This document shows, piece after piece, positions 3,635-46,552 of a stretch of 53,144 nucleotides of DNA. The stretch lies in assembly GCA_030610765.1 (NCBI GenBank), contig JAUWRD010000001.1:1-53144 (forward strand), in the 5' to 3' direction. Made by a program: the position numbers and the translations under genes. Source of the DNA: Actinomycetes bacterium (GTDB taxonomy: Bacteria > Actinomycetota > Aquicultoria > CAJVYJ01 > JAUVQD01). The first letter of the stretch is position 1. Each line of letters opens with the position of its first letter. The notes beneath the pieces are model-generated. The model was given only the letters and a program-made list of their open reading frames with translations, did not search any database and was not told the DNA's origin.

Positions 3635-4477
3635 TTATTTTTCATCGCCGGTCACGATGAGTTCGCTTAGCCAATGAAACTCGTGCTCAGCGGCGACAAA
3701 AGGGTCGCTACCAAACCATTCTACTGAAATCCAACCGTTGTAGCCATCGCGGTGTAAAGCGTCGAGAAACGGCTTGTAGTCCATATTCCCGCGTTCCAGA
3801 AAGGTTATTCCGCCAATCTCACCCAATCCCTGCTTGTCGTGAAAGAGGGGATAGTCATCGCCGTTGCTTGGCGGGATAAGAGCGTTCTTGGCATGTATGT
3901 GTCTTACTCGTGACTTTAACTGCTCCCAAATCCAAACCGGCTCCTGGTGTATTTCCCACATATGATAAATGTCGAGATTCAAGACCAGATTTGGTTTATC
4001 AACGGCGGCAAGCAAATTATTAATGGAAGGGATGTTGTCGACTAGCGTTTTCGGATGCGTTTCAAGCGCCAGAGACAGATCCTTCTTCTCAGCAATCTCA
4101 CATAATTGAGTTAGCCTCTTAGCTGCCTCATCGAAGACCTCTTTGTTGATTTCCGCGCTCCCCAGGAAACCAGTAAAAACGCGCACCAACGGCGCCTTAA
4201 AGATCACTGCGTAGTCAAAGAAGGTTTTGGCCGCCGATAAGGTTGAATTCCACTCTGTGGAGTCGCCCGTTATATTGAAATAAGGCGAGATCATCGGAGT
4301 CGCCATGTTGTTCTCCGCCAGGCAAGCAGCTACTTCCTCAATATCGTCTTCGGTTCCGCCCAGGTCGTTTCCCCAAATCTCTATTCCGTCATATCCAATC
4401 TTAGCCAGCCTTGGTATTATGGCGACTAAGGGAAGATCGAGTTTACGAAAGGCGATTGAACAAAAGCTTATTCTCAT
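3635..4477 (-). CDS. sugar phosphate isomerase/epimerase (xylose-isomerase-like TIM barrel)
   Basis: 280 aa with a family-typical pattern (..GYDGIEIW.., ..LALETH.., ..HIHAKN.., ..ISVEWFG..). Exact substrate not inferable. Confidence 0.7.
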   Translation of the reverse strand: MRISFCSIAFRKLDLPLVAIIPRLAKIGYDGIEIWGNDLGGTEDDIEEVAACLAENNMATPMISPYFNITGDSTEWNSTLSAAKTFFDYAVIFKAPLVRVFTGFLGSAEINKEVFDEAAKRLTQLCEIAEKKDLSLALETHPKTLVDNIPSINNLLAAVDKPNLVLNLDIYHMWEIHQEPVWIWEQLKSRVRHIHAKNALIPPSNGDDYPLFHDKQGLGEIGGITFLERGNMDYKPFLDALHRDGYNGWISVEWFGSDPFVAAEHEFHWLSELIVTGDEK

Positions 4478-4520
4478 GAACTTAGTCTACCGCAAAGATT
4501 GAGCAACTTGGAAGTCCACA

Positions 4521-5912
4521 TTGGAAAGTAATAGTTTGGATAATGAAGATTTCTTAGAAAAAATCACGCAGACGATCTCGAAACACAAAATGATTGATGT
4601 CGGCGACAATGTTATTGTCTCTGTTTCAGGCGGTCCGGACTCCACCGCACTTTTATTGGCTCTCACGGCAATTAGCGGCAAATTCGATTTGACAATGCAC
4701 GTTTGGCACCTGAATCATCAGATAAGACCTGAGGCCGGCGCTGAGGCTGATCATGTCTTAGCACTTGGAGAATCTCTTGGAATTCCGGTCACGATCGATG
4801 AGAGAAACGCCAAAGTTTTTGCTAAAGAAAACCGCTTATCCCTTCAGGAGGCTGGAAGGGAGCTGAGATATGAGCTTTTGACCGACTTGAGCCGGCGTCT
4901 CGGAGGCGCTAGAATCGCCATCGGCCATAATGCCGATGACAGCATTGAAACGTTCTTCATTAATCTATTACGAGGCGCGGGAATGACGGGCCTGAGAGGC
5001 ATACCTCCGGTTCGTAAAAGAATAATCAGGCCTCTAATCGAATGTCACAAAAACGAAATATTGAAGTACCTGGAATCATCAAAGAGCAGTTATCTTTCTG
5101 ACCCGTCTAATCAGGATCGACGATATCTAAGAAATGCCGTACGTCTCGATTTGATCCCTGTAATCAATGATCTCAATCCTGACGCCATAGACAAGTTAAA
5201 GACAACCATGTTGTTGATTAATGATGAAGATGATTGGCTGGATTCAATTGCCCGACAGAAATTTAATCAGATTGCTGATATTGGCGTTCGGGAAATACAA
5301 ATTGACGCGCCACGGCTTAAGAAATTAAACTTAGCGCTAACAAGAAGACTTATCAGACTGGCGTTAATCGCTCATTTCGGTTCCAACCGCAATATTGATT
5401 TCTCTACAGTTCAGACGATCATAGACAAAACTTTGATGGATGGGGTACCCACAAATATCGCGCGGCGGGCGAGAGCTGAATTGATCGGGGATAAACTCAT
5501 CATCTATTCTGAGCGCGTACCCTTTAAAAATCTCGTGATTGACGCCAGCGGAGGCAGATTTCAAATTGAAGATACAAAAATATCTGTTACTATATTTCCA
5601 GCCAACAAATCGGTTGAAAAGTTTGACGCCAAGGCCGTGTTGGTCGATGTTGACAGAATCGAATGGCCGATAAATGTTCGTCCTTGGCAAAACGGCGATT
5701 GGTTCGTGCCGTTAGGGATGACGGGGAGGAAGAAACTGCAGGATTTCTTCGTGGATTCCAAAGTGCCAAGGCGGCATCGATCATCTATACCAATCTTTTC
5801 AGACAGAGTTAAGGTTGTGGCGATTGGAGACCTACGGATCGATGAAAGAGTAAAGGTTTCAGATAGGACAAAAAGAGTTGCTCTTATCGAATCTCCCGGC
5901 ATCATAAATTGA
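4521..5912 (+). CDS. tilS: tRNA(Ile)-lysidine synthetase
   Basis: PP-loop SVSGGPDS about 35 aa from the N-terminus. About 460 aa. Conserved tilS-hpt-ftsH order. TTG start. Confidence 0.85.
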   Translation: MESNSLDNEDFLEKITQTISKHKMIDVGDNVIVSVSGGPDSTALLLALTAISGKFDLTMHVWHLNHQIRPEAGAEADHVLALGESLGIPVTIDERNAKVFAKENRLSLQEAGRELRYELLTDLSRRLGGARIAIGHNADDSIETFFINLLRGAGMTGLRGIPPVRKRIIRPLIECHKNEILKYLESSKSSYLSDPSNQDRRYLRNAVRLDLIPVINDLNPDAIDKLKTTMLLINDEDDWLDSIARQKFNQIADIGVREIQIDAPRLKKLNLALTRRLIRLALIAHFGSNRNIDFSTVQTIIDKTLMDGVPTNIARRARAELIGDKLIIYSERVPFKNLVIDASGGRFQIEDTKISVTIFPANKSVEKFDAKAVLVDVDRIEWPINVRPWQNGDWFVPLGMTGRKKLQDFFVDSKVPRRHRSSIPIFSDRVKVVAIGDLRIDERVKVSDRTKRVALIESPGIIN

Positions 5913-5989
5913 GTTTACGGAGAAATTTCGTTTCGGTTGGTGAATAGATAGAATTGAGCGTTTAAATATATGGTGGGTAAGGGAATATT

Positions 5990-6547
5990 ATGGATGGACT
6001 ACATAGTGACATAGATGAGGTAGTCTTATCGGCTGAGCAGATCAAAAGTCGTGTTATAGAACTCGGGCTCGAGCTAGAGAAAGATTATCAAGGCAAGTCA
6101 CCGCTTTTCGTCGGTATCTTAAGAGGCGCAATAATGTTTTTAGCGGACATTACAAGGGCTTGCCAGCTTCCATTGGCAGTTGATTTTATCGCAGTTGCCA
6201 GCTATGGTTCGAGCACGAGATCTTCAGGCGTTGTGCGAATCTTAAAAGACCTCGATGAGGATTTAAGGGGTAGGCATGTGATTTTGGTTGAAGACATACT
6301 CGATACAGGCTTGACCTTGAACTACTTAATAAAGAATATGCGAACTCGGCAACCTGCTTCACTGGAAATTTGCGCGCTACTCGTGAAACAGGGCAAGCAA
6401 AAGGTCATTTTAGAGCCACGATATCAAGGGTTTAAGGTAGAGGATAAATTTGTAGTTGGGTATGGCCTTGATTATGATGAACGCTATCGAAATCTTCCCT
6501 ATGTCGGAACGCTCAAGCCGGGCATAGTAGAAGAAGAACTTGACTAA
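5990..6547 (+). CDS. hpt: hypoxanthine-guanine phosphoribosyltransferase
   Basis: PRPP-binding motif VILVEDILDTGLTL. 185 aa. Sits between tilS and ftsH. Confidence 0.9.
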   Translation: MDGLHSDIDEVVLSAEQIKSRVIELGLELEKDYQGKSPLFVGILRGAIMFLADITRACQLPLAVDFIAVASYGSSTRSSGVVRILKDLDEDLRGRHVILVEDILDTGLTLNYLIKNMRTRQPASLEICALLVKQGKQKVILEPRYQGFKVEDKFVVGYGLDYDERYRNLPYVGTLKPGIVEEELD

Positions 6548-6605
6548 AATTGTACCCGCCAAGATATGGTGATAGAATTGATTTATAGAAAAGAGGAAAT
6601 ACAGC

Positions 6606-8519
6606 TTGCAGAAGGTGCTTAAGAGTGCGGGGTTCTACATTGTACTCGTTATTTTAATTATATTTTTCGCCAATTCATATTTCAGTAAGCCCGAACAACC
6701 CAAGACAGTAACGCTTGATAAATTCGTGGCAGAAGTAAAATCTGGCGATGTCAAAGAAGTTGAAATAAAAGACCGCGATAATGTTATTAACGGCGTCTAC
6801 AGGAATGGAACCGAATTCAAGGCTAGCTATCCTTCGGATTACGATGTGGCCAAGCTGTTGCTAGCGAATAAGGTTAAAACAAAAGTAGATGTAAATGCTA
6901 CAACGCCGTGGTTCAGTATCTTAATCAACTTCTTGCCGCTGATACTGATCGTCGGCATCTGGTTGTTTATGCTTCAGCAGATGCAGGGCGGTGGCAACAA
7001 GGTGATGAGTTTTGGCAAAAGCAAGGCGAAGAGGATGTCAAAAGATCAGCCTCGGGTTTCCTTTAAGGATGTCGCGGGAGTAGACGAGGCCGTCGAAGAA
7101 CTTGAAGAGATAAAAGAGTTTTTAGCTAACCCCATCAAGTTTCAGTCTATGGGCGCTAAGATACCGAAAGGCGTTTTATTATTTGGTCCACCGGGCTCGG
7201 GCAAGACATTGTTGGCTCGCGCGGTAGCCGGTGAGGCAGCTGTACCTTTCTTCTCAATAAGTGGCTCAGATTTTGTCGAGATGTTTGTCGGGGTCGGTGC
7301 TTCGCGTGTTCGTGACCTATTTGAACAAGCAAAAACTAATTCTCCCTGCATAATTTTTATGGATGAGATAGACGCAGTCGGCCGGCACAGAGGCGCCGGC
7401 TTAGGCGGTGGCCATGACGAGCGGGAGCAAACCCTTAATCAGTTGCTTGTTGAAATGGATGGCTTTGACGTAAAAGATAATGTGATTCTTATAGCGGCGA
7501 CCAACCGACCGGACATTCTTGATCCGGCGCTTCTGCGTCCGGGACGGTTTGATAGGCAGATAATGGTTCCACCGCCAGACCTTCAGGGCAGACTTGGAAT
7601 TATAAAAGTTCACACTAAAGGAAAACCGCTTGAGAAAGATATGGATCTGGAAGTTCTGGCAAGAAGAACGGCAGGTTTTACAGGCGCTGATTTGGCGAAT
7701 GTGGTAAATGAAGCCGCTATTTTGACTGCGCGACACGGCAAAAAACTTATAGATATGGAAGAAATGGAAGAGGCAACAGAGAGAGTTATAGCCGGGCCAG
7801 AGAGAAAGTCACGCTTGATTTCCGATAAAGAGAAAAGACTAACTGCTTTTCACGAGGCGGGCCATGCTGTTGTCGCCAACGCGTTGCCATCGCTAACCGA
7901 TCCTGTCCACAAGGTGACGATAATACCTAGAGGTCGTGCTGGTGGATATACACTGATTTTGCCGACCGAAGATAGAATGTACCGGGCAAAGAAAGAACTT
8001 CTTGACGAAGTGGCTATGTTGCTTGGCGGGAGAGCCGCTGAGGATCTGTTTCTCGGTGACGTAACAACGGGCGCTCAAAATGATTTAGAAAGGGCAACCA
8101 AACTTGCTCGAAGAATGGTTTGTGAGTGGGGTATGAGCGAAAAATTGGGTGCGCTTACTTTGGGTCAAAAACAACATGAAGTGTTCTTAGGGCGAGACCT
8201 CTCTCATAACCCCGACTATAGCCAGCAAATTGCTTTTGAAATCGACACAGAGATACGCCGCATTATCGATGAAGCGTATGAGAAAGATAGGAAGATATTG
8301 AAAGACGACAAAAAGCGAGTAGAAGCGATCGTCGCAAAATTGATAGAGCAGGAAACGTTAGAGAAAGATGAATTAGTGCAGCTATTATCTAAGAATTTTG
8401 ATTCTCCAAAAACCGCGGCAGCTACCGCTAAGGCTGAGAAGAAAACCAAGACAACCAAAAAAACACGTAAGCCTAAGCTTTCAGATTTGCCTGGAAAATT
8501 GAGACCGGCAGAAAGCTAG
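6606..8519 (+). CDS. ftsH: ATP-dependent zinc metalloprotease FtsH
   Basis: Walker [12 protein letters not shown] second region of homology [19 protein letters not shown]. Zinc site HEAGHAV. Two N-terminal TM helices. Lys-rich tail. Confidence 0.97.
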
Positions 8520-8548
8520 AAAGCTTTAAACCCCCTATATCCGACTCA

Positions 8549-9397
8549 ATGAATAAAGAAAAGGTCACAACCGAAACAATAAGAGAAAAGAAGAATGGCC
8601 CTGAGCAGATCATTGCCTTAACTGCTTGGGACTATACGAGCGCGCAAATTGTTGACACAGCCGGTATAGACATAGTTTTAGTAGGGGACTCGCTTGCGAT
8701 GACCATACGGGGTGACGAGAACACCCTGGGGATAACTGTTCACGATATGATATACCACACGCAAATGGTATCAAGGGCTTGCCAAAGAGCTCTGGTAATC
8801 GCAGACATGCCGTTTATGTCCTACCAATTAAATGAAGTGCAAGCGACTAGGAACGCCGGCCGTTTTCTTAAAGCCGGTGGCGCCGGTGGGGTAAAGATCG
8901 AGGGGGGCATGAGAATGGCCTCTACCATAGAAAAGATAACGGGAGCCGGGATTCCAGTGATGGGACATATCGGCCTGACACCGCAGTCAGTTCACCAGAT
9001 TGGCGGGTACAAGGTGCAAGGAAAATCGTTAGAACCCGCCAAGGAGCTAGTGAAAGACGCAAAAGCGCTACAGGCGGCTGGTGTTTTTTCGCTCGTTCTG
9101 GAATGTGTTCCGTCCGAGCTCGCAAGTTTTATAACTGATTCAATCGATATTCCGACGATAGGCATTGGCGCCGGCTCGGGGTGTGACGGCCAGATCCAAG
9201 TCACCGCTGATGTCATCGGCTTAAAACAAGGAAGCGTCCCGAAGCACGCGAAGAAATATACTGATTTGAATCACTCTTTTATGACAGCTGTTAAGACCTA
9301 TGCCGCAGAGGTAACTAAGGGTGCTTTTCCAACTGAAGCAAACAGCTTCAAGAGCAGCGACGACCTAAAGCAATCCCTGGAAAAAGAAGATATTTAA
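8549..9397 (+). CDS. panB: 3-methyl-2-oxobutanoate hydroxymethyltransferase
   Basis: Family-typical LVGDSLAMT, ADMPFMSY, VKIEGG and GHIGLTPQS motifs. Confidence 0.93.
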   Translation: MNKEKVTTETIREKKNGPEQIIALTAWDYTSAQIVDTAGIDIVLVGDSLAMTIRGDENTLGITVHDMIYHTQMVSRACQRALVIADMPFMSYQLNEVQATRNAGRFLKAGGAGGVKIEGGMRMASTIEKITGAGIPVMGHIGLTPQSVHQIGGYKVQGKSLEPAKELVKDAKALQAAGVFSLVLECVPSELASFITDSIDIPTIGIGAGSGCDGQIQVTADVIGLKQGSVPKHAKKYTDLNHSFMTAVKTYAAEVTKGAFPTEANSFKSSDDLKQSLEKEDI

Positions 9398-10725
9398 AGG
9401 GCAAGCAGGGCTCCTTTGATCGATTCCAGATACGCGTGAATAGTCTCCTCGGCTTGATTGCAATGCGGATCATCAATTGAGCCGTTTATGCACATTGCGG
9501 CGTAGGCGCAACCTCCACCACAAAATGTTGCTACGGGGCAATCACGGCATTTCTTTAAAGTCATGATGCTTCTTCCGTTCCACTTATCAAGGGCTTTCTG
9601 ATCGAGAACTAGATCAGGATGATAAGAACCAACCGCAGTTCTCTGGTCTCCAATTGCTTCAGCGCACAGATAGACATTTTTGTCCGTGCCAAAAGTGTAG
9701 CAACTTAAATTGTTTGACTCACAATAGAAGAAACGAGGATAGCTGATTTGATCAGACTTAAGCGTGCTTATTATATAGTCGAGATTTCTGAAAAGGTCAG
9801 GACGGAATATTTCCACAACGGGGAAGTTCTTCTTCAAATCTAGCCAGATCTTTGCAGTCTCATCCTCCGTCAAGCGGTGGGGAACAGTTTCTCCTGTGTG
9901 ATTGTCCACTGGCGAAAGCAAAGCGGCAAAATTCTCATATTTATCCCAACCTCTCTGTATCATAAAGTTGGCCAAATCAGTCAAGCTGCCTATGTTTTCA
10001 CGATCTACATTAACTCGCACCCGTACTCGAATACCTCGCGCGAGCGCAGCGTCAATGGACGAGACAATTTCGTCAAACGTGCCTTGACCTCCGGTTTTCG
10101 GACGCCTTTTGTCGTGAATATCAGCAGTTCCGTCTAGTGTGATCTGGAAGTCTATTAGATGATCTTTGTACTGCCGCAAAAGAGGCAAAAACTCTTTTAG
10201 ATTCACTCCATTTGTAACCGCGCTAATAGTAAATTCTCGTTTACGCGCCTCATCCAAAATATAGGATATGATGGCGCGGTTAGCCGGCAAAAAAGGCTCA
10301 CCGCCAAAAAGCTGTATTGAGGCAGGTTTATCAGTCAGAGCTTCAATGGCACGAAAGATTGAATCGACCTCAGCAACGGTTAGCGCATGCGTTTCGACCT
10401 GAGTAAGATCACCCTCGAAACAATAAACACATCGTAAATTACAAGCGTAAGTCGGGCAAATAACAAACATCACTGGTCTGTCAATTCCCTTAAACTTTTC
10501 AAACAAGGCCTTAAGTTTATCTTCCTCCTCGGCCTCGGATTTATAGATATAACCTCGATCGAGTAACGACTGATATATGGGCGTGCTTGGTGTGATTGTT
10601 TCCGGTGACTCAAAATGATGCATGAACTCATTATCGATTAGGTCAATCGCCCCCGTTAATGTGTTGAACACGATGGTTTGATAGGCGTCAAGTTTATGCT
10701 TTACCAAGTATTTTGTTAAGTACAT
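9394..10725 (-). CDS. radical SAM / SPASM-domain peptide maturase-like protein
   Basis: CNLRCVYC (Cx3Cx2C) after an N-terminal extension of about 90 aa. C-terminal CRDCPVATFCGGGC (Cx2Cx5Cx3C), with upstream Cys residues completing a SPASM-type auxiliary-cluster region. The stop shares the tetranucleotide TTAA with the panB stop. Confidence 0.85.
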   Translation of the reverse strand: MYLTKYLVKHKLDAYQTIVFNTLTGAIDLIDNEFMHHFESPETITPSTPIYQSLLDRGYIYKSEAEEEDKLKALFEKFKGIDRPVMFVICPTYACNLRCVYCFEGDLTQVETHALTVAEVDSIFRAIEALTDKPASIQLFGGEPFLPANRAIISYILDEARKREFTISAVTNGVNLKEFLPLLRQYKDHLIDFQITLDGTADIHDKRRPKTGGQGTFDEIVSSIDAALARGIRVRVRVNVDRENIGSLTDLANFMIQRGWDKYENFAALLSPVDNHTGETVPHRLTEDETAKIWLDLKKNFPVVEIFRPDLFRNLDYIISTLKSDQISYPRFFYCESNNLSCYTFGTDKNVYLCAEAIGDQRTAVGSYHPDLVLDQKALDKWNGRSIMTLKKCRDCPVATFCGGGCAYAAMCINGSIDDPHCNQAEETIHAYLESIKGALLAL

Positions 10726-10775
10726 CAGGACCCCTTAGGTAAGATTTGAGAAGGAATTGATTCCACTCTTTTTAT

Positions 10776-10819
10776 TTGACAAACAAGCGTTTGTTAAATA
10801 ACATTATCAATACTACAAT
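10776..10819. promoter_or_regulatory. divergent promoter region with 6-bp inverted repeat ACAAAC-N4-GTTTGT
   Basis: TTGACA(10776-10781)-17-TAACAT, and TTGTTA(10791-10796)-17-TACAAT(10814-10819). The inverted repeat 10779-10794 overlaps both -35 boxes. Lies between the divergent rSAM and M56 genes. Confidence 0.35.
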
Positions 10820-10893
10820 CTTAATAGGTTTTAGACAAATGCGTTTTTCCAAAGAGGCCAAAGCTATTTTGTGTATCTGCCGTCCAGGAAAGC

Positions 10894-11973
10894 ATGGTTA
10901 TGTTTGATCAGATAGCCACGAGTACGTTAATTGACGACATCGCGCTTAGAATCCTGCTTAGTGTAACGACGGGCGCATTTTGGCTCGTTATAATTCTAGC
11001 GATCATCAGGCTATTTAAAATCAGAAACCCGAATTTAAAATATTTTCTGCTGACCATACCGTTACTAAAAAGTCTTTTGGCTCTAGCCAGAAGTTTGCCT
11101 CATTTTTCGGACTTCAAGGGAGTCTTTATTATAAGCGCTAAACTGCCGAATCCCGGAACGTTTCTGCCATCAATCGACTGGAAGAGCGCGGACTCGTTAT
11201 ACGGCAGCTATTTTCATCCGACAACCACAATTTCTGCGTCGACCATCGTAACTATTCTAGTCGCGAGTTTGATATTTTCGGCTTGGAGAATGGTTGGTAT
11301 GGTTAGGTTTGTCAGGCTCATAAACAAATCACAAGAGGTAGGCCGGGAGGAAAACATATCCTTGTTTGACATCCTCGATAAGCTAGTTGAAGAATACGGA
11401 ATTTCCTATCCGAAAGTGATTTTATTGGAGACAAGCGCCGCCCCCTTTACGATCGGGCTTAAGAATCCAATAATCGCTCTTTCGACCAATCTAATTGATC
11501 AATTAGAAACCTCGGAGATGGAGGCGATTCTGCGCCACGAGACAGCTCATATAAGCAGATATGATCATCTTCATCATTGGCTAGCTGTAATAATAAGAGA
11601 CATTCTGTTCTTTAATCCCGTTATTCATTATTTGCTTCCAAGACTGGTCTTTGAGAGGGAACGGGCCTGCGACTATCGGACTACGCTTAAAAGTAAACGC
11701 AGGGTCTTAGCGAAGAGCCTCGTCAAGGTTGCGGAAATCCAAGCCGCTCAACCTGCTTCACCCTTAATTAGCCTTTATGCTCCTCAAAGATTTATCCCAC
11801 ACACTCACTTCTATTTTAAAGAGCGCGTAAAGGAACTGCTTGAGCCAAAGATGGTTCATGTAATGCCAGGACACATTAAAAGACTTCTCTGGCCTGCACT
11901 TATGCTGGCCTTGATCACTCTGGATATACACTTGGTCACAACCGTTAAAAGGTTTATTCTGGTCTTAAGCTAG
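10894..11973 (+). CDS. M56 (BlaR1-like) family integral membrane zinc metallopeptidase lacking a sensor domain
   Basis: Multiple TM helices. HETAHISRYDH (HExxH in the M56-type context). 359 aa ending in another TM helix. No penicillin-binding-type C-terminal domain. Confidence 0.7.
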   Translation: MVMFDQIATSTLIDDIALRILLSVTTGAFWLVIILAIIRLFKIRNPNLKYFLLTIPLLKSLLALARSLPHFSDFKGVFIISAKLPNPGTFLPSIDWKSADSLYGSYFHPTTTISASTIVTILVASLIFSAWRMVGMVRFVRLINKSQEVGREENISLFDILDKLVEEYGISYPKVILLETSAAPFTIGLKNPIIALSTNLIDQLETSEMEAILRHETAHISRYDHLHHWLAVIIRDILFFNPVIHYLLPRLVFERERACDYRTTLKSKRRVLAKSLVKVAEIQAAQPASPLISLYAPQRFIPHTHFYFKERVKELLEPKMVHVMPGHIKRLLWPALMLALITLDIHLVTTVKRFILVLS

Positions 11974-12062
11974 TATTTCGCTAGTTCTTTAAAAACAATC
12001 GCTTTCTCACTAGACATGTAGCGTACTAAACCCTTAGTATGGTCACTAAGGAGGTGCGGAAC

Positions 12063-12173
12063 ATGAGACCTATTAATTCCGATGAGAAGCTATGGTCTGA
12101 GGTTTCCGACGACAAAGTAACACGTGGTAGTAATTGTTGTTGGAATATCGCTTGGTGCTGGTTCTGGGGCTAA
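12063..12173 (+). CDS. unannotated 36-aa Cys/Trp-rich peptide, candidate RiPP precursor
   Basis: AAGGAGG at 12048-12054, then 8 nt, then ATG 12063. Translation is MRPINSDEKLWSEVSDDKVTRGSNCCWNIAWCWFWG, ending at TAA 12171-12173. The N-terminal half is acidic and the last 12 residues hold 3 Cys, 4 Trp and 1 Phe. A hairpin follows. An in-frame ATG at 12039 (44 aa) lacks an SD. Confidence 0.55.
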   Translation: MRPINSDEKLWSEVSDDKVTRGSNCCWNIAWCWFWG

Positions 12174-12183
12174 AACTTTAAAA

Positions 12184-12232
12184 CGCTGTCTTTGTTGGGG
12201 GGTTGTTTCATTTTTTGGGAGGGAAGACAGCG
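12184..12232. terminator. hairpin between the convergent peptide ORF and the response-regulator gene
   Basis: 9-bp arms CGCTGTCTT (12184-12192) and AAGACAGCG (12224-12232) with a 31-nt loop. On the minus strand the stem is followed by TTTTAAAGTTTTA, so it best fits a terminator for the kinase-regulator operon. Its function on the plus strand is less certain. Confidence 0.5.
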
Positions 12233-12235
12233 CCT

Positions 12236-12886
12236 CTAGTCCACAAGACCTTCTTTTACCGCCATCAAAGCCGCTGAGGTTCTGTCGTTTATATGAAGTT
12301 TCCTGAATATGTGGCTGAGATGATTCTTCACAGTTTTATCGCTAATGAAAAGTTGAGCGGCGATTTCCTTGTTACTCATTGCTTTGGCGATACACGCCAA
12401 TACTTCTTTTTCACGAGAAGTCAATGCTTCATAATGTTTTGCTTTTTCATCTTCGTGTTTCTGAATATTTGAGAATTCATGAAGCAGCTTCGACGCCATC
12501 GAGGGTTGCAGAAGAGATAGCCCATCTTTGGCAGCCTTTATTACCTGTATCAGCTCTTGCGGAGCGCGACTTTTTAAGAGGTATCCGATAGCGCCGGCCT
12601 TAATTGCTTCAAACAAGAATTGTTCCTCTTCATGCATCGTGAGCATGACAACGGTTCCCTCGCTATCAGCTTCTTTTATCTTTCTGGTTGCTTCAATGCC
12701 ATCCATCTCGGGCATTTGGATGTCCATCAAAATAACATCAGAATCGAGGCTTCCAGCAAGCTCTACCGCTTGTTTGCCGTTTTCAGCTTCGCCGACAACT
12801 TTCATACCCGCTTCCTCAAGTATTCTTCTTAGGCCCTGCCTCATTAGCGTGTGATCATCTACGATTAAGATAGATATGGGTTCCAT
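12236..12886 (-). CDS. NarL/LuxR-family two-component response regulator
   Basis: Receiver domain (ILIVDDH..., ILMDIQMPEMDG) plus C-terminal LuxR-type HTH (LTSREKEVL...NKEIA...S.KTVKNHL..I..KL). Confidence 0.9.
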   Translation of the reverse strand: MEPISILIVDDHTLMRQGLRRILEEAGMKVVGEAENGKQAVELAGSLDSDVILMDIQMPEMDGIEATRKIKEADSEGTVVMLTMHEEEQFLFEAIKAGAIGYLLKSRAPQELIQVIKAAKDGLSLLQPSMASKLLHEFSNIQKHEDEKAKHYEALTSREKEVLACIAKAMSNKEIAAQLFISDKTVKNHLSHIFRKLHINDRTSAALMAVKEGLVD

Positions 12887-12891
12887 GATTT

Positions 12892-14565
12892 CTAAGCTCC
12901 TTTTACAGTAACCGGTATTCGGACATTGACAGACGTTCCTTCACCAAGCGCGCTTATGATTTCGACGTCTCCGTGCAGAGATTGAACGCGTTCGCGCATG
13001 CCGGATAAGCCAAAGCCGCTATTGTTCGAGATCTGTGTTTTCACGCTCTCAAAGCTGAATCCCTGTCCGTTATCTTTCACTGACATTTTCACTCCCTCGT
13101 TATCCGAAGATAGATCGAGAGTAACCTGACTTGCTTGCGCGTGTTTCTTTATGTTGTTTAATGCTTCCTGCGCCAGCCTGAAGAGAGCGGTCTCCACAGT
13201 TTCGGGCAGACGAGTTTGTTTCTGAGCATTCAAGATTGTTTTAATGTCATTCATCTCAGCGAAGCGTTCCAGGTGTTTTTCTAGCGTTGGGACCAACCCT
13301 AAGGAATCTAATATTGTGGGTCGGAGATCATAAATTACCAGCCTTAAGTCAGCAATCGTATCTTCAACGATCTTTTCAATCTGTTTGATCTCAGTGATCG
13401 CCGATTTATCTTCTGAGGTAAGAGAACTTTCCAGAAAGCTAAGACTGAAGATGATTCCGGACAGATTTTGAATGACACCGTCATGAAGATCGCGCGCAAA
13501 TCTGCGTCTTTCCTCCTCTTGAGCGTTGGCTAAACGCGTCATAACGCGTTGCAACTGGCTGTGGTTGGCGATTACCTCGCTGTATAGATCGGCGTTTTCC
13601 AAAACAATCGTCGCGGACCGGACAATACCAGATGCAATTTGAATATCTCGATCATTGAAGTCATGAGCGGTCTTATTGTAGAAAACCATTGCTATAGCGT
13701 GCACTTGATCTCTTTTAACGCAAGGGATGAGAATGGCTGATTTTATGCCAAACCTGGCAACAACCTCTCTGTTAATCGAGATGTTTTGATCAGCCCTGTT
13801 AATGGCGACAGGGAGTTGTTTTTCAAGCATCTCTTTAATTGCGGGCGACGAAACACTGTCGAGCTTGGCCGCGGAATCATTTAGGCAAACAAAGCCCTGA
13901 CCGTTAGTTGCTTTAATAAAACTGAGACACCCGTCGGCGAAAAGGGCTCTTGATAATGAAACGGACAACATTTTTAGAACCTCGTTGGCGTCAGCTAACC
14001 CGCCAATTTCCAGCGCAACCTGCAAAAGTGTTGACGATACCTCTGCCTCTTCTCTAAGTTTGTCTTTCTCAGTCACTAGCTCATCCCAGTTGTCTACAAA
14101 GAAACCACTTTCTTGATCTAGGAGCCCTTGCAGTTCAGAGGATTTACCCTTATTTAGGCGCGCCTGTTTAATAAGCTTATCGCGCTCACGAGCTAGAGAG
14201 CTCATCTGATTTTTGAGTTCCTTGTTTCGCGCTCGACCCAGACCGACAAAAAACCCACTGAGCGTTGGAACTACGATCACTAGAACAATAAGCAGGCTTT
14301 GAGTTCTTGATTGTTTTAAGAACTGAACAAAATCAAGATTGCTACTTGCCGAATCATAATTATAGACTGCCAGCAACAGCAGGACTCCCACTATCAGTCC
14401 CGCCACCGTGTATTTTCCATTTCGTCGCAAGTCAAAAGGACTCGTCAAGCACTGACCCTTTCCAAGGCATCCGACTTCTTCTTTAATTATTGTCGGCAAA
14501 TCCTTGATGACTAAATAGAGCTTTACTGAAATATTATTCCTAATTATAATCAAAGAGCTTGGCAT
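12892..14565 (-). CDS. sensor histidine kinase: two TM helices with a short loop, coiled coil, GAF-like domain, HisKA_3, HATPase
   Basis: H-box FARDLHDGVIQNL, N-box NNIKKHA, and the G-boxes DNGQGF and GFGLSGMRERV. TM helices VAGLIVGVLLLLAVY and LLIVLVIVVPTLSGFFVGL are separated by about 20 aa. The start codon is uncertain; the first 45 aa of the listed ORF may be untranslated. Confidence 0.85.
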   Translation of the reverse strand: MPSSLIIIRNNISVKLYLVIKDLPTIIKEEVGCLGKGQCLTSPFDLRRNGKYTVAGLIVGVLLLLAVYNYDSASSNLDFVQFLKQSRTQSLLIVLVIVVPTLSGFFVGLGRARNKELKNQMSSLARERDKLIKQARLNKGKSSELQGLLDQESGFFVDNWDELVTEKDKLREEAEVSSTLLQVALEIGGLADANEVLKMLSVSLSRALFADGCLSFIKATNGQGFVCLNDSAAKLDSVSSPAIKEMLEKQLPVAINRADQNISINREVVARFGIKSAILIPCVKRDQVHAIAMVFYNKTAHDFNDRDIQIASGIVRSATIVLENADLYSEVIANHSQLQRVMTRLANAQEEERRRFARDLHDGVIQNLSGIIFSLSFLESSLTSEDKSAITEIKQIEKIVEDTIADLRLVIYDLRPTILDSLGLVPTLEKHLERFAEMNDIKTILNAQKQTRLPETVETALFRLAQEALNNIKKHAQASQVTLDLSSDNEGVKMSVKDNGQGFSFESVKTQISNNSGFGLSGMRERVQSLHGDVEIISALGEGTSVNVRIPVTVKGA

Positions 14566-45142: not shown

Positions 45143-45251
45143 CTCTTATCCAGAGAGGTGGAGGGACTGGCCCTTTGAAGCCTCGGCAACCTGGAAGTAA
45201 AATATCTTCTAAGGTGCCCCTTCCTGCGTGAAGAGCACCGGCAGATGAGAG
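45143..45251 (+). promoter_or_regulatory. SAM-I (S-box) riboswitch aptamer
   Basis: CTCTTATCCAGAGAGGTGGAGGGACTGGCCCTTTGAAGCCTCGGCAACC...AAGGTGCC...GCAGATGAGAG matches the S-box core. The P1 strands CUCUUAUC and GAUGAGAG pair, with one G-U. Lies upstream of metK. Confidence 0.85.
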
Positions 45252-45270
45252 CAGATAGTTCTTAATATTT

Positions 45271-45309
45271 GCTTTCTTCTGTAGATCAGAGGAAAGCTTT
45301 GCGCTTTTT
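45271..45309 (+). terminator. riboswitch expression-platform terminator
   Basis: GCTTTCTTCTG (45271-45281), loop TAGAT, CAGAGGAAAGC (45287-45297), then TTTGCGCTTTTT. The P1 3' strand GAUGAGAG can alternatively pair with CUUUCUUC of the terminator 5' arm (anti-terminator). Confidence 0.6.
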
Positions 45310-45337
45310 AAGGACAAAAAAACAGGAGGAATTATAT

Positions 45338-46552
45338 ATGTCGTCAAAAGATTTTGTTTTTACGTCAGAGTCGGTCACGGAAGGGCATCCCGACAAAATA
45401 GCAGATCAGATCTCCGATTCAATTCTTGATGCCATCTACACGGAAGACCCGATGGGAAGAGTGGCCTGTGAAACCTTTGTTACAACTGGACTGGTTGTTG
45501 TCGGGGGAGAAATAACGACTAATACTTATGTATCTATTCCCGAAATAGTCCGTGAAACAATCAGGAGTGTCGGCTACACACGAGCTAAATTTGGCTTTGA
45601 TTGTGATACCTGCGGAGTTATAACTACAATCGACGAGCAATCGAGTGATATCGCCGTTGGCGTCAATCACTCTATTGAGGAAAGAGGCGAAGACCTTACC
45701 GAGGATGATCTAAATAGATTGGGTGCGGGCGATCAAGGCATGATGTTCGGGTACGCGTGTAATGAGACGCCGGAGCTGATGCCGGCCCCGATTATGTTTG
45801 CCCATAAACTAGCGCGGCGTTTGGCCGAGGTCAGAAAGAAGGATATCGTTGACGAGCTTCGACCCGACGGAAAGACTCAGGTAACCGTTGAGTACCGGGA
45901 CGGACAGCCCTACCGAATCAGGACGGTTGTCATCTCAACTCAACACGGGCCTTCGATGAATATTGAGGATGAGCTAAAACCCGCTCTACTCGAACACGTT
46001 GTCCTACCGGTATTACCCGATAAGCTTCTGGATCACGCTTCACTTAAGTTCCTGGTCAATCCAACAGGAAAATTTGAGGTCGGCGGCCCCATGGGCGACG
46101 CCGGCTTAACAGGACGCAAAATTATAGTCGACACTTACGGCGGGATGGCGAGACACGGTGGCGGAGCTTTTTCTGGAAAAGACCCCACAAAAGTGGATCG
46201 CTCAGGAGCTTACGCAGCCCGTCATGTCGCGAAAAATGTGGTAGCGGCAGATTTAGCTGAAAAATGCGAAGTACAGTTGGCCTACGTAATAGGCGTTGCT
46301 CACCCGGTATCGGTAATGGTGGATACGTTTGGCACAGAAAAAATACCAGTCGAGAAAATCCAAAAACTAATAGTGGAACATTTTGATCTGCGACCCGCCG
46401 CGATAATTAAGAATCTGAAACTTCGGCGCCCAATCTACAAAAGTACAGCAGCTTACGGGCACTTTGGTCGAGATGAAGATGGCTTTACTTGGGAAATATG
46501 CGATGTCGCCGACCAACTAAGAAGCGCGTCTGGAATCAGCGCGGTCGTCTAG
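45338..46552 (+). CDS. metK: S-adenosylmethionine synthetase
   Basis: [27 protein letters not shown]..., [12 protein letters not shown] and DTYGG motifs. ATG 45338 lies behind AGGAGG (45324-45329). The listed ORF start at 45269 lies in the riboswitch platform. Confidence 0.97.

Follow-up and report, generated by a model that had tools for sequence, protein, structure and literature searches.

A conserved gene cassette for a putative radical SAM-modified peptide with a BlaR1-type M56 protease in uncultured Actinomycetota

The window analysed here is a 53-kb stretch of DNA (53,144 nucleotides, contig JAUWRD010000001.1) from an Actinomycetes bacterium. Between its panB and cob genes lies a block of five genes that the original prediction, made from the sequence without database searches, had read as one unit for a ribosomally synthesised and post-translationally modified peptide (RiPP): a radical S-adenosylmethionine (SAM) maturase, a membrane peptidase of family M56, a hidden peptide gene and a two-component system. 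All five genes were found where they had been placed, both in the list of open reading frames (ORFs) and in the raw sequence, and Pfam and NCBIfam support their domain assignments. We compared the block with a set of loci (designated L001 and so on), which are the neighbourhoods of homologues of the radical SAM protein (197 homologue matches) together with loci from a scan of genome contigs. Positions 9394-12173 most likely form the central part of a conserved cassette whose product is a ribosomal peptide modified by a radical SAM enzyme. The features of the block are as follows.

9394..10725, minus strand: putative peptide maturase of 443 amino acids with RiPP recognition element (RRE), radical SAM and SPASM domains (motifs, Pfam, NCBIfam, AlphaFold2 model, Foldseek)
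10726..10893: divergent promoter region between the maturase and M56 genes (sigma-70-like match)
10894..11973, plus strand: sensor-less BlaR1-type M56 membrane zinc protease of 359 amino acids (PF05569)
12011..12040, plus strand: promoter-like site and palindrome upstream of the peptide gene (TAGACA-18-TAGTAT)
12048..12054, plus strand: Shine-Dalgarno sequence AAGGAGG of the peptide gene (read in the sequence)
12063..12173, plus strand: gene for the 36-residue precursor peptide (conserved in relatives)
about 12184..12232: hairpin between the convergent peptide and regulator genes (ten-pair stem)
12236..12886, minus strand: NarL/LuxR-type response regulator of 216 amino acids, a lineage-specific neighbour (PF00072 and PF00196)
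12892..14565, minus strand: HisKA_3 histidine kinase with a GAF domain, 557 amino acids, a lineage-specific neighbour (PF07730, PF02518, PF01590)

The peptide gene starts with an ATG at 12063, stops at 12173 after 36 codons and encodes MRPINSDEKLWSEVSDDKVTRGSNCCWNIAWCWFWG, in which the leader begins MRPINSDEKLW and the core is CCWNIAWCWFWG, an extremely hydrophobic sequence rich in Cys and Trp. It lies exactly 89 nt 3' of the M56 gene and behind AAGGAGG, as had been predicted, and it is a genuine gene. Homologous peptides (for example MKPVNSNDSLWQEQPDAKNSHGGCCWAIGWCWFWG, MTSLNQNLWTSPENGQDPTAKGHFCCWFASFCWWWGK, MKSLNQDDMLWDAMSCEEGCDSDNSCCWDFSCCWYW and MISINEDSKLWHNTDPKTSADLVGPTCCFYWCIWGW) are encoded beside the radical SAM or M56 gene in L001 and L003, whose radical SAM proteins are 64-66% identical to that of the window, in L085 and L086 (55-56%), in L087 (44%), in L088, L209 and L214 (39-41%; two peptide copies in L088) and in L005 and L009 (32-33%), which are two Actinomycetota metagenome-assembled genomes (MAGs). 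These last two loci came from the contig scan, which was made with the radical SAM alignment and generic patterns (CNLRCxYCF, LFGGEPLLP) and in which identity did not exceed 33% among the matches listed. The peptides share the leader motif LNxxxxLW and the core motif CCWxxxWCWxWG, and their alignment shows no variation at N5, L10, W11, C25 and C26 and almost none at C32 and W33. All but two of the 12 peptide genes compared have a GGAGG-type site a few bases 5' of the start, and those two have weaker sites (GGGAG in L005 and GGGGGTGGAG in the L088b copy). The invariant core residues are specified by varying synonymous codons across these genes (TGT/TGC, GGC/GGT/GGA), a mark of purifying selection on the peptide. 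A pattern combining the leader with the CC doublet recovered 17 true peptides and one false match from 1.13 Mb of radical SAM-derived loci plus the window, and one further false match in 0.74 Mb of control DNA. By these comparisons, chance is far from sufficient to explain the short ORF.

The gene is missed almost every time by gene callers. When a profile built with a 44-amino-acid version of the ORF was searched against 5.8 billion protein clusters, only 4 clusters were found to hold such a peptide, one of them annotated 'hypothetical protein [Actinomycetota bacterium]'. An NCBIfam scan of 13 precursor peptides at permissive E-values gave no meaningful match. A scan of metagenome DNA for CCWxxxxCWxW (written as TGYTGYTGG-N12-TGYTGG-NNN-TGG) returned at least 120 matches; those listed were chance matches or low-complexity TGC/TGG repeats, and none of those listed carried the leader. 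One family member, P0189, has 54 amino acids (MKSLNADQALWQTKENGSRSASANGVEPACCWFWGCCWYWGMSANPDEPLPQVS) with a 13-residue tail beyond the core, and its 48,005-base contig equals that of the radical SAM protein P0088; the tail suggests that some members may need C-terminal trimming too. In L088 the pair of peptide and radical SAM genes is tandemly duplicated (5872-9021), the second peptide having a shortened core (…SSCCWWLGY), lying ahead of the second radical SAM gene and being followed, after the duplicated pair, by a second BlaI gene. The spacer between the M56 and peptide genes is unusually long in L087 (656 nt, 3704-4359), compared with 48-175 nt in the other loci.

The neighbourhoods of the radical SAM homologues thus bear out that an M56 gene and a conserved short C/W-rich ORF co-occur with the maturase, and the association of these three genes as a RiPP-type module extends down to 32% radical SAM identity. 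The original prediction had also remarked that no BlaI-type repressor lies near the M56 gene. This is correct for the sub-lineage of the window, where a BlaI hidden Markov model (HMM) built from the cassettes found no BlaI-type ORF in the 53 kb, and where the M56 gene of the window, L001, L003 and L085 directly faces the radical SAM gene. It does not hold for most related loci: a BlaI/MecI-type repressor gene (PF03965) adjoins the M56 gene in L086, L087, L088, L209, L214, L005 and L009, seven of the 12 M56-containing loci, and three of these seven have a second copy past the radical SAM gene. L086, the sister locus, carries BlaI as well as the two-component system, which means that BlaI was lost from the locus within the lineage of the window. 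The order BlaI, M56, peptide, radical SAM is colinear in L088, L209, L214, L005 and L009 and divergent in L086 and L087. The cassettes occupy at least four genomic contexts (panB/cob or pan genes; rubrerythrin, M42 peptidase and LigD; folD and acetyl-CoA-synthase (acs) genes; tgt-secDF/pst), and in none of those examined did an exporter, a second protease or another tailoring gene belong to the cassette, so the conserved unit comprises four genes. Among 88 loci scanned with the cassette HMMs, strong M56 and BlaI matches were confined to loci with a CCW peptide, with weak matches in one distant locus, L062. Taken together, the sequences point to BlaI-M56-peptide-radical SAM as the ancestral unit. 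New here are the BlaI gene next to M56 in most related loci and this four-gene unit. No beta-lactamase or penicillin-binding protein (PBP2a/PBP) gene was present in any cassette examined, and a CopY-type metal-sensing reading of the BlaI homologues was rejected on the grounds that their C-terminal CxC motifs are missing.

The radical SAM protein has the architecture that had been proposed for it, namely the motif CNLRCVYC (Cx3Cx2C; C95, C99 and C102), an N-terminal extension of about 90 amino acids and the SPASM motif CRDCPVATFCGGGC (C393, C396, C402 and C406). Ten Cys residues are invariant in the family (18 homologues), of which three belong to the SAM cluster and the other seven to the SPASM region (C335, C354, C393, C396, C402, C406 and C422, in the pattern C...C / Cx2Cx5Cx3C / C), which corresponds to a SPASM domain with two auxiliary clusters and aligns with that of CteB. 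The protein reaches 65.8 bits with the Pfam Radical_SAM model (PF04055; cut-off 29.5). A family profile matches CteB in the PDB (5WGG, E 3e-32, positions 33-427), and an AlphaFold2 model with a predicted local distance difference test score (pLDDT) of 91 gave CteB, SuiB, the anaerobic sulfatase-maturating enzyme (anSME), TigE, ChlB and SkfB as the highest-ranking Foldseek matches, those to CteB and SuiB extending over the full length. In the model, residues 7-79 (pLDDT about 90) fold as an RRE-type domain, with strands at 7-11, 16-21 and 26-31 and helices at 32-39, 51-57 and 64-79; this RRE/PqqD-like domain is a putative binder of the leader. A peptide gene lies next to the radical SAM or M56 gene in 12 distinct loci when the window is counted, and the LNxxxxLW leader also accompanies relatives with other cores. 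Sequence and model together indicate a CteB-like peptide maturase with RRE-like and SPASM domains.

Within NCBIfam, the window protein reached the cut-off of none of the named maturase families that it matched (scores are given as bits/cut-off). The top matches were CefB (151.5/600) and TIGR04463 (140/525), and the other best ones were Clo7bot, geopeptide and PapB, all of them maturases of short Cys-rich peptides; Clo7bot, geopeptide, DynA, ryptide and FlmE/OhkG likewise stayed below cut-off, as did the sactipeptide and ranthipeptide synthase models SCIFF (78/425), PapB (95/340) and QhpD (61/453). StsB and RumMC were not among its best 25 families and in relatives reached only 63/625 (StsB, P0041) and 73/720 (RumMC, P0064). 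The relatives P0026, P0041, P0064 and P0031 and the L005 protein were similarly below every named NCBIfam maturase cut-off. The models for anSME (58/349), MftC (62.6/265) and NirJ scored lower than those of the Cys-rich-peptide maturases, and the protein does not group with anaerobic sulfatase-maturating or cofactor enzymes. As the short ORF is moreover conserved, neither of the two sequence-based refuting conditions attached to the original prediction holds. This bears on the most sceptical view of the locus, that there is no functional unit and that the short ORF is spurious, or that the radical SAM protein is a sulfatase or cofactor maturase which happens to lie beside an HtpX-like stress protease. 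Weak matches to the anSME and HtpX models would fit such a view, but the ORF is conserved with synonymous changes, the adjacency is kept in at least four unrelated contexts, and the radical SAM protein combines an RRE-like domain and a CteB-like fold with a low anSME score. The comparative data contradict it, and we regard it as highly improbable.

The third gene encodes a protein with an M56 domain (PF05569, 86 bits against a cut-off of 31) and no Pfam domain beyond PF05569/PF01435. Its subfamily has invariant H215-E216-x-x-H219 (HETAH in the window) and E254/E256, thus a zinc-protease domain of the HExxH...E type within a scaffold of four transmembrane (TM) helices. An AlphaFold2 model (pLDDT 77) shows two TM helices, a low-confidence outer loop at 66-114 in the EL1 position of BlaR1, a third TM helix, the gluzincin domain and a last TM helix at 326-342; the best Foldseek matches are Staphylococcus aureus BlaR1 (8EXP-8EXT, including the TM and protease construct 8EXR), followed by ZMPSTE24/Ste24. 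The claim that the protein has no sensor domain was confirmed, as it ends at residue 359, only 17 residues past the fourth TM helix. With the blaR1_generic model it reaches 47.6 bits (cut-off 400). By sequence comparison the subfamily is small and distinct: nine close full-length relatives were found before the matches jump to E 1e-13, and among 1.84 billion cluster representatives 72 have E <= 1e-30, mostly of 330-360 amino acids. Four of the nine close relatives are on contigs equal in size to those of radical SAM homologues. In an Aquicultorales MAG (L213, 3827-6410) an M56 gene lies directly 5' of the radical SAM gene, with no BlaI gene.

PMC9834060 reports direct cleavage of BlaI by BlaR1 and states that the way in which the sensor-less BlaR1 homologue of Mycobacterium tuberculosis detects beta-lactams is unclear. 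As BlaI adjoins M56 in most cassettes, the possibility that M56 has a regulatory role has to be taken into account. The main rival explanation is that M56 and BlaI form a signalling switch only, in which M56 senses, inside the membrane, the mature peptide (by autoinduction or quorum sensing) or envelope stress and cleaves BlaI, supplied from elsewhere in the genome where it is not adjacent, so as to de-repress the operon, while an unlinked housekeeping protease removes the leader. BlaI is often the first gene of a colinear operon, and the fold of M56, including the EL1-like loop, is like that of BlaR1. Features of the promoters also help this rival. Before the M56 gene is a sigma-70-like TTGACA(10776)-17-TAACAT(10804) on the plus strand, with TACTA at 10811-10815 (within ATACTAC, 10810-10816), a pentamer also found close to the -10 of the M56/BlaI promoter in the five syntenic relatives. 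Ahead of the peptide gene is the promoter-like TAGACA-18-TAGTAT (12011..12040), with the palindrome TACTAaaccctTAGTA at 12024-12039, which occurs once in the whole window, where 0.07 matches would be expected; TACTA...TAGTA palindromes occupy the equivalent site in L003, L086 and L087, and imperfect ones in L001 and L085. The half-sites repeated in the two promoters are similar to those of Clostridium thermocellum BlaI proteins, GACTAT/GTCTAT (PMC8457756). TACTA/TAGTA occurs 24 times in the cassette promoters against 6.8 expected, a count for a motif chosen after seeing these sequences, and the spacing within the palindromes varies (1, 3 or 6 nt); the motif is thus only suggestive of an operator. 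A further inverted repeat, ACAAAC-aagc-GTTTGT at 10779-10794, overlaps the -35 of the M56 promoter-like site and is not found in the orthologous regions of L001 and L003.

Against the switch, M56 with an intact HExxH...E is kept in the window, L001, L003 and L085, which have no nearby BlaI and whose M56 proteins share only about 45% identity; this argues for a role of M56 that is tied to the peptide itself. L213 also keeps M56 beside the radical SAM gene in the absence of BlaI, and no other peptidase is linked to any cassette. We therefore consider the purely regulatory explanation a serious possibility, though an unlikely one.

The explanation that we prefer, at a probability of about 0.5, is that the cassette encodes an undescribed family of ribosomal radical SAM-modified peptides and that M56 processes the peptide, most likely by removing its leader, and/or senses it, and also cleaves BlaI where this is present. 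Precursor, maturase and M56 are co-inherited across distant genomes, mostly with BlaI. In the proposed sequence of events, the RRE-like domain of the maturase would bind the LNxxxxLW leader, and its radical SAM/SPASM core would abstract hydrogen and cross-link the invariant Cys residues of CCW...CW.W, most likely forming thioethers to neighbouring residues, as in CteB and PapB. The very hydrophobic product would then move to the membrane, where the BlaR1-like M56, with its zinc site facing the cytoplasm, would act on it, most likely by leader removal and release of the core. In cassettes that keep BlaI, M56 would also cleave BlaI, so that activation of the operon would keep pace with peptide production or an envelope signal. 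Seven Cys ligands over two auxiliary clusters leave one open iron site, and in CteB a Cys of the substrate binds there. The seven-Cys SPASM pattern gives mild support to thioether chemistry, and by analogy with these enzymes the cross-links are probably thioethers.

Several points weigh against this explanation. Only about 13 loci were compared, several of which have a common ancestry. Peptide cleavage by M56 is something that we infer, and the presence of BlaI, the canonical partner of M56, in seven of 12 loci fits a purely regulatory role; a BlaI gene could also lie elsewhere in the genome of the window organism, and the TACTA/TAGTA half-sites persist in loci without BlaI. L213 has M56 and the radical SAM gene, yet no recognisable precursor within 5 kb, and its peptide may be encoded elsewhere or be too divergent for detection. 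As to the chemistry, six catalytic-site-proximity positions of CteB (PMC10288494) were mapped to F103, F140, V170, T196, A355 and E356, and by this mapping of our own, from the profile alignment, only two of the six residues are identical and one or two similar. Given how much Trp the core contains, cross-links of the streptide or darobactin type, with C-C or C-O bonds to Trp, are equally possible.

Relatives of the radical SAM protein at 36-40% identity keep the leader and have other CC-based cores and other partners. L210 encodes a peptide ending in PDCCWFIDGCCWVKC, with TatA and a second radical SAM protein. L212 (Herbivorax sp. ANBcel31, 3954-4605) has two precursors with the common leader MNSLNNTNDLW… and cores of CCDQD/CCDFS repeats, beside two radical SAM genes and ABC exporters. 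In L211 (Anaerocolumna sp. AGMB13025, CP121445.1, 2020-10940) the peptide is MKPINEKKELWTEL…CIDCCYKICIDCCFKI and the radical SAM protein is 37% identical to that of the window; its partners are an Rce1-like CPBP protease, near the peptide and radical SAM genes and upstream of an adjacent OmpR-type two-component system, and an ABC transporter. The cores of this wider family all contain a CC doublet with W, F, Y or D after it, and CC[W/F/Y/D] may be the unit that the enzyme modifies. Anaerocolumna and Herbivorax are cultured relatives with a like leader and different cores, and L211 could be a tractable model for the leader and the radical SAM enzyme. CPBP proteins are tied to bacteriocin immunity. 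The Rce1-like protease of L211 and the extreme hydrophobicity of the core are consistent with a self-protective function of M56 against a membrane-active peptide, parallel to the CPBP/Abi proteases of bacteriocin loci; we think this improbable, as immunity leaves the pairing with BlaI unexplained and the lack of an exporter makes secretion of the peptide as a toxin doubtful. More distant relatives (27-33% identity) are associated with peptides of the AQCCAKxSKxVAGCHD type and have no M56 or BlaI. In L008, L010, L013 and L017 (28-33%), short peptides ending in AQCCAKxSKxVAGCH(D/N) are encoded just upstream of the radical SAM gene at 6001, and those of L010 and L013 match no NCBIfam model.

The absence of an exporter from every cassette could also mean that the product stays in the cell, as an intracellular or membrane-bound cofactor-like or metal- or redox-active molecule trimmed by M56, comparable to pyrroloquinoline quinone (PQQ) or mycofactocin. 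Such a product would suit a block that one lineage has stably kept at a single chromosomal position next to pantothenate and cobalamin genes, in hosts that are subsurface or sediment organisms by their MAG and sample names. However, no dependent oxidoreductase or carrier gene co-occurs, the whole 12-residue core is conserved and not one or two residues, and the PqqE and MftC models are not reached, so that a cofactor seems to us a poor candidate. The position of the block also corrects the earlier impression that it looks accessory: its place between the panB and cob sides is kept in relatives with 55-66% radical SAM identity and its G+C content (0.42-0.46) is that of the flanks, which rules out a recently inserted island. 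The radical SAM and panB genes are convergent, with stop codons overlapping by 4 nt at 9394-9397, and the identical overlap in L001 and L003 (7329-7332) is a sign of long-standing residence at the site.

A bolder reading would join the two activities of M56. On this tentative view, which we hold to be unlikely on present comparisons, the cassette would be the first BlaR1/BlaI-type switch wired to a ribosomal peptide, with M56 recognising and perhaps cleaving the peptide in the membrane and thereby controlling BlaI, and the maturase would form a cross-link new to RiPPs, for instance from a Cys sulfur to the beta-carbon or ring of the adjacent Trp, Phe or Tyr in CC[W/F/Y]. If so, the cassette would define a new RiPP class and provide the widespread sensor-less BlaR1 homologues, such as that of M. 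tuberculosis, with a natural ligand or substrate. The preferred explanation, if true, would add a new precursor and maturase family to the radical SAM peptides, whose unusually Trp- and Cys-rich CCWxxxWCWxWG core may undergo new chemistry; it would tie a BlaR1/BlaI-type module to peptide production and give a testable idea of what sensor-less BlaR1 homologues sense or cut. It would also show how fully such genes escape annotation (4 clusters of 5.8 billion). The hosts, judged by their names, are uncultured Actinomycetota, so practical follow-up would be by heterologous expression.

Comparison with known systems agrees with the initial impression that this combination of radical SAM protein, M56 protease and W/C-rich core belongs to no recognised class: no NCBIfam model (release 20, June 2026) covers it and no paper was found in the literature searched that links M56 or BlaI with a radical SAM peptide. 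The family may nevertheless be present as an uncharacterised cluster in large radical SAM networks. CteB/SCIFF and the PapB-type thioether enzymes share with the maturase the RRE-like N-terminus, Cx3Cx2C, the seven-Cys SPASM region and a Cys-rich precursor with a short leader, and CteB is its best PDB match by profile and by fold; the system differs from CteB/SCIFF in its Trp-rich core with a CC doublet, its lack of an exporter and the attached BlaR1/BlaI pair, and identity to CteB is only about 19%. CefB (Cys-every-fifth), TIGR04463, Clo7bot and geopeptide maturases supply the best family models for the window protein and its relatives and also have short Cys-rich precursors, but the scores are far under their cut-offs and no NCBIfam model fits the peptides found here. 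Streptide/SuiB, darobactin, dynobactin and the ryptides likewise combine a radical SAM-SPASM enzyme with a Trp-rich core, and SuiB is among the top fold matches, whereas their precursors lack the invariant CC...C and the DynA and ryptide models score 88/450 and 90/600. With BlaR1-BlaI and MecR1-MecI the cassettes have in common the M56 gluzincin fold, three N-terminal TM helices with a fourth after the protease domain, and, in most related cassettes, an adjacent winged-helix BlaI-type repressor, and with the M. tuberculosis BlaR1 homologue the missing penicillin-binding sensor domain (PMC9834060); unlike BlaR1-BlaI, they have no beta-lactamase or PBP gene nearby, their apparent outputs are the peptide and its maturase, and the window has no BlaI. 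Processing of the lipidated a-factor precursor by the CAAX-type membrane proteases Ste24/ZMPSTE24 (and Rce1) is similar in that a membrane zinc protease, the second-best fold match of M56, would act on a small, Cys-modified, hydrophobic substrate; this is a functional analogy only, there being no prenyltransferase and no seven-TM chamber here.

The remaining two genes of the block encode a kinase and a regulator that converge on the peptide gene, as coordinates and Pfam confirm. In the kinase, TM segments at about 49-72 and 87-112 are separated by a loop of some 15 amino acids and accompanied by GAF and HisKA_3 domains, a layout that by sequence is of the intramembrane-sensing type. Its description as LiaSR-like is apt as far as HisKA_3, the two TM segments, the minimal outer loop and the NarL-type regulator are concerned, but the LiaS model scores 133.9 bits against a cut-off of 450 and MctS 176 against 700, and in contrast to LiaS/LiaR there is an extra GAF domain. 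The pair adjoins the cassette only in loci that share the synteny of the window (the window, L001, L003, L085 and L086) and in no other cassette. Linkage and shared descent are thus inseparable, and of the proposed five-gene unit the radical SAM, peptide and M56 genes stand while membership of the two-component system is unproven. The kinase and regulator may have taken over or added control in the lineage of the window, which is likewise unproven, and the unrelated OmpR-type pair of L211 gives weak independent support for two-component control.

Between the peptide and regulator genes a hairpin is present at about 12184-12232, with a ten-pair stem (CGCUGUCUUU/GGGAAGACAGCG), and a similar element occurs in L001 and L003 only. 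The predicted hairpin thus exists, but its energy equals that of shuffled sequence (z = 0.32) and it has no T-run, so we rejected it as a notable feature; it is possibly a terminator, on weak grounds. Elsewhere in the window, the sole Rfam match in the window is a SAM riboswitch at 45143-45251 on the plus strand (RF00162; 80 bits, gathering score 44), just 5' of the ORF at 45269..46552.

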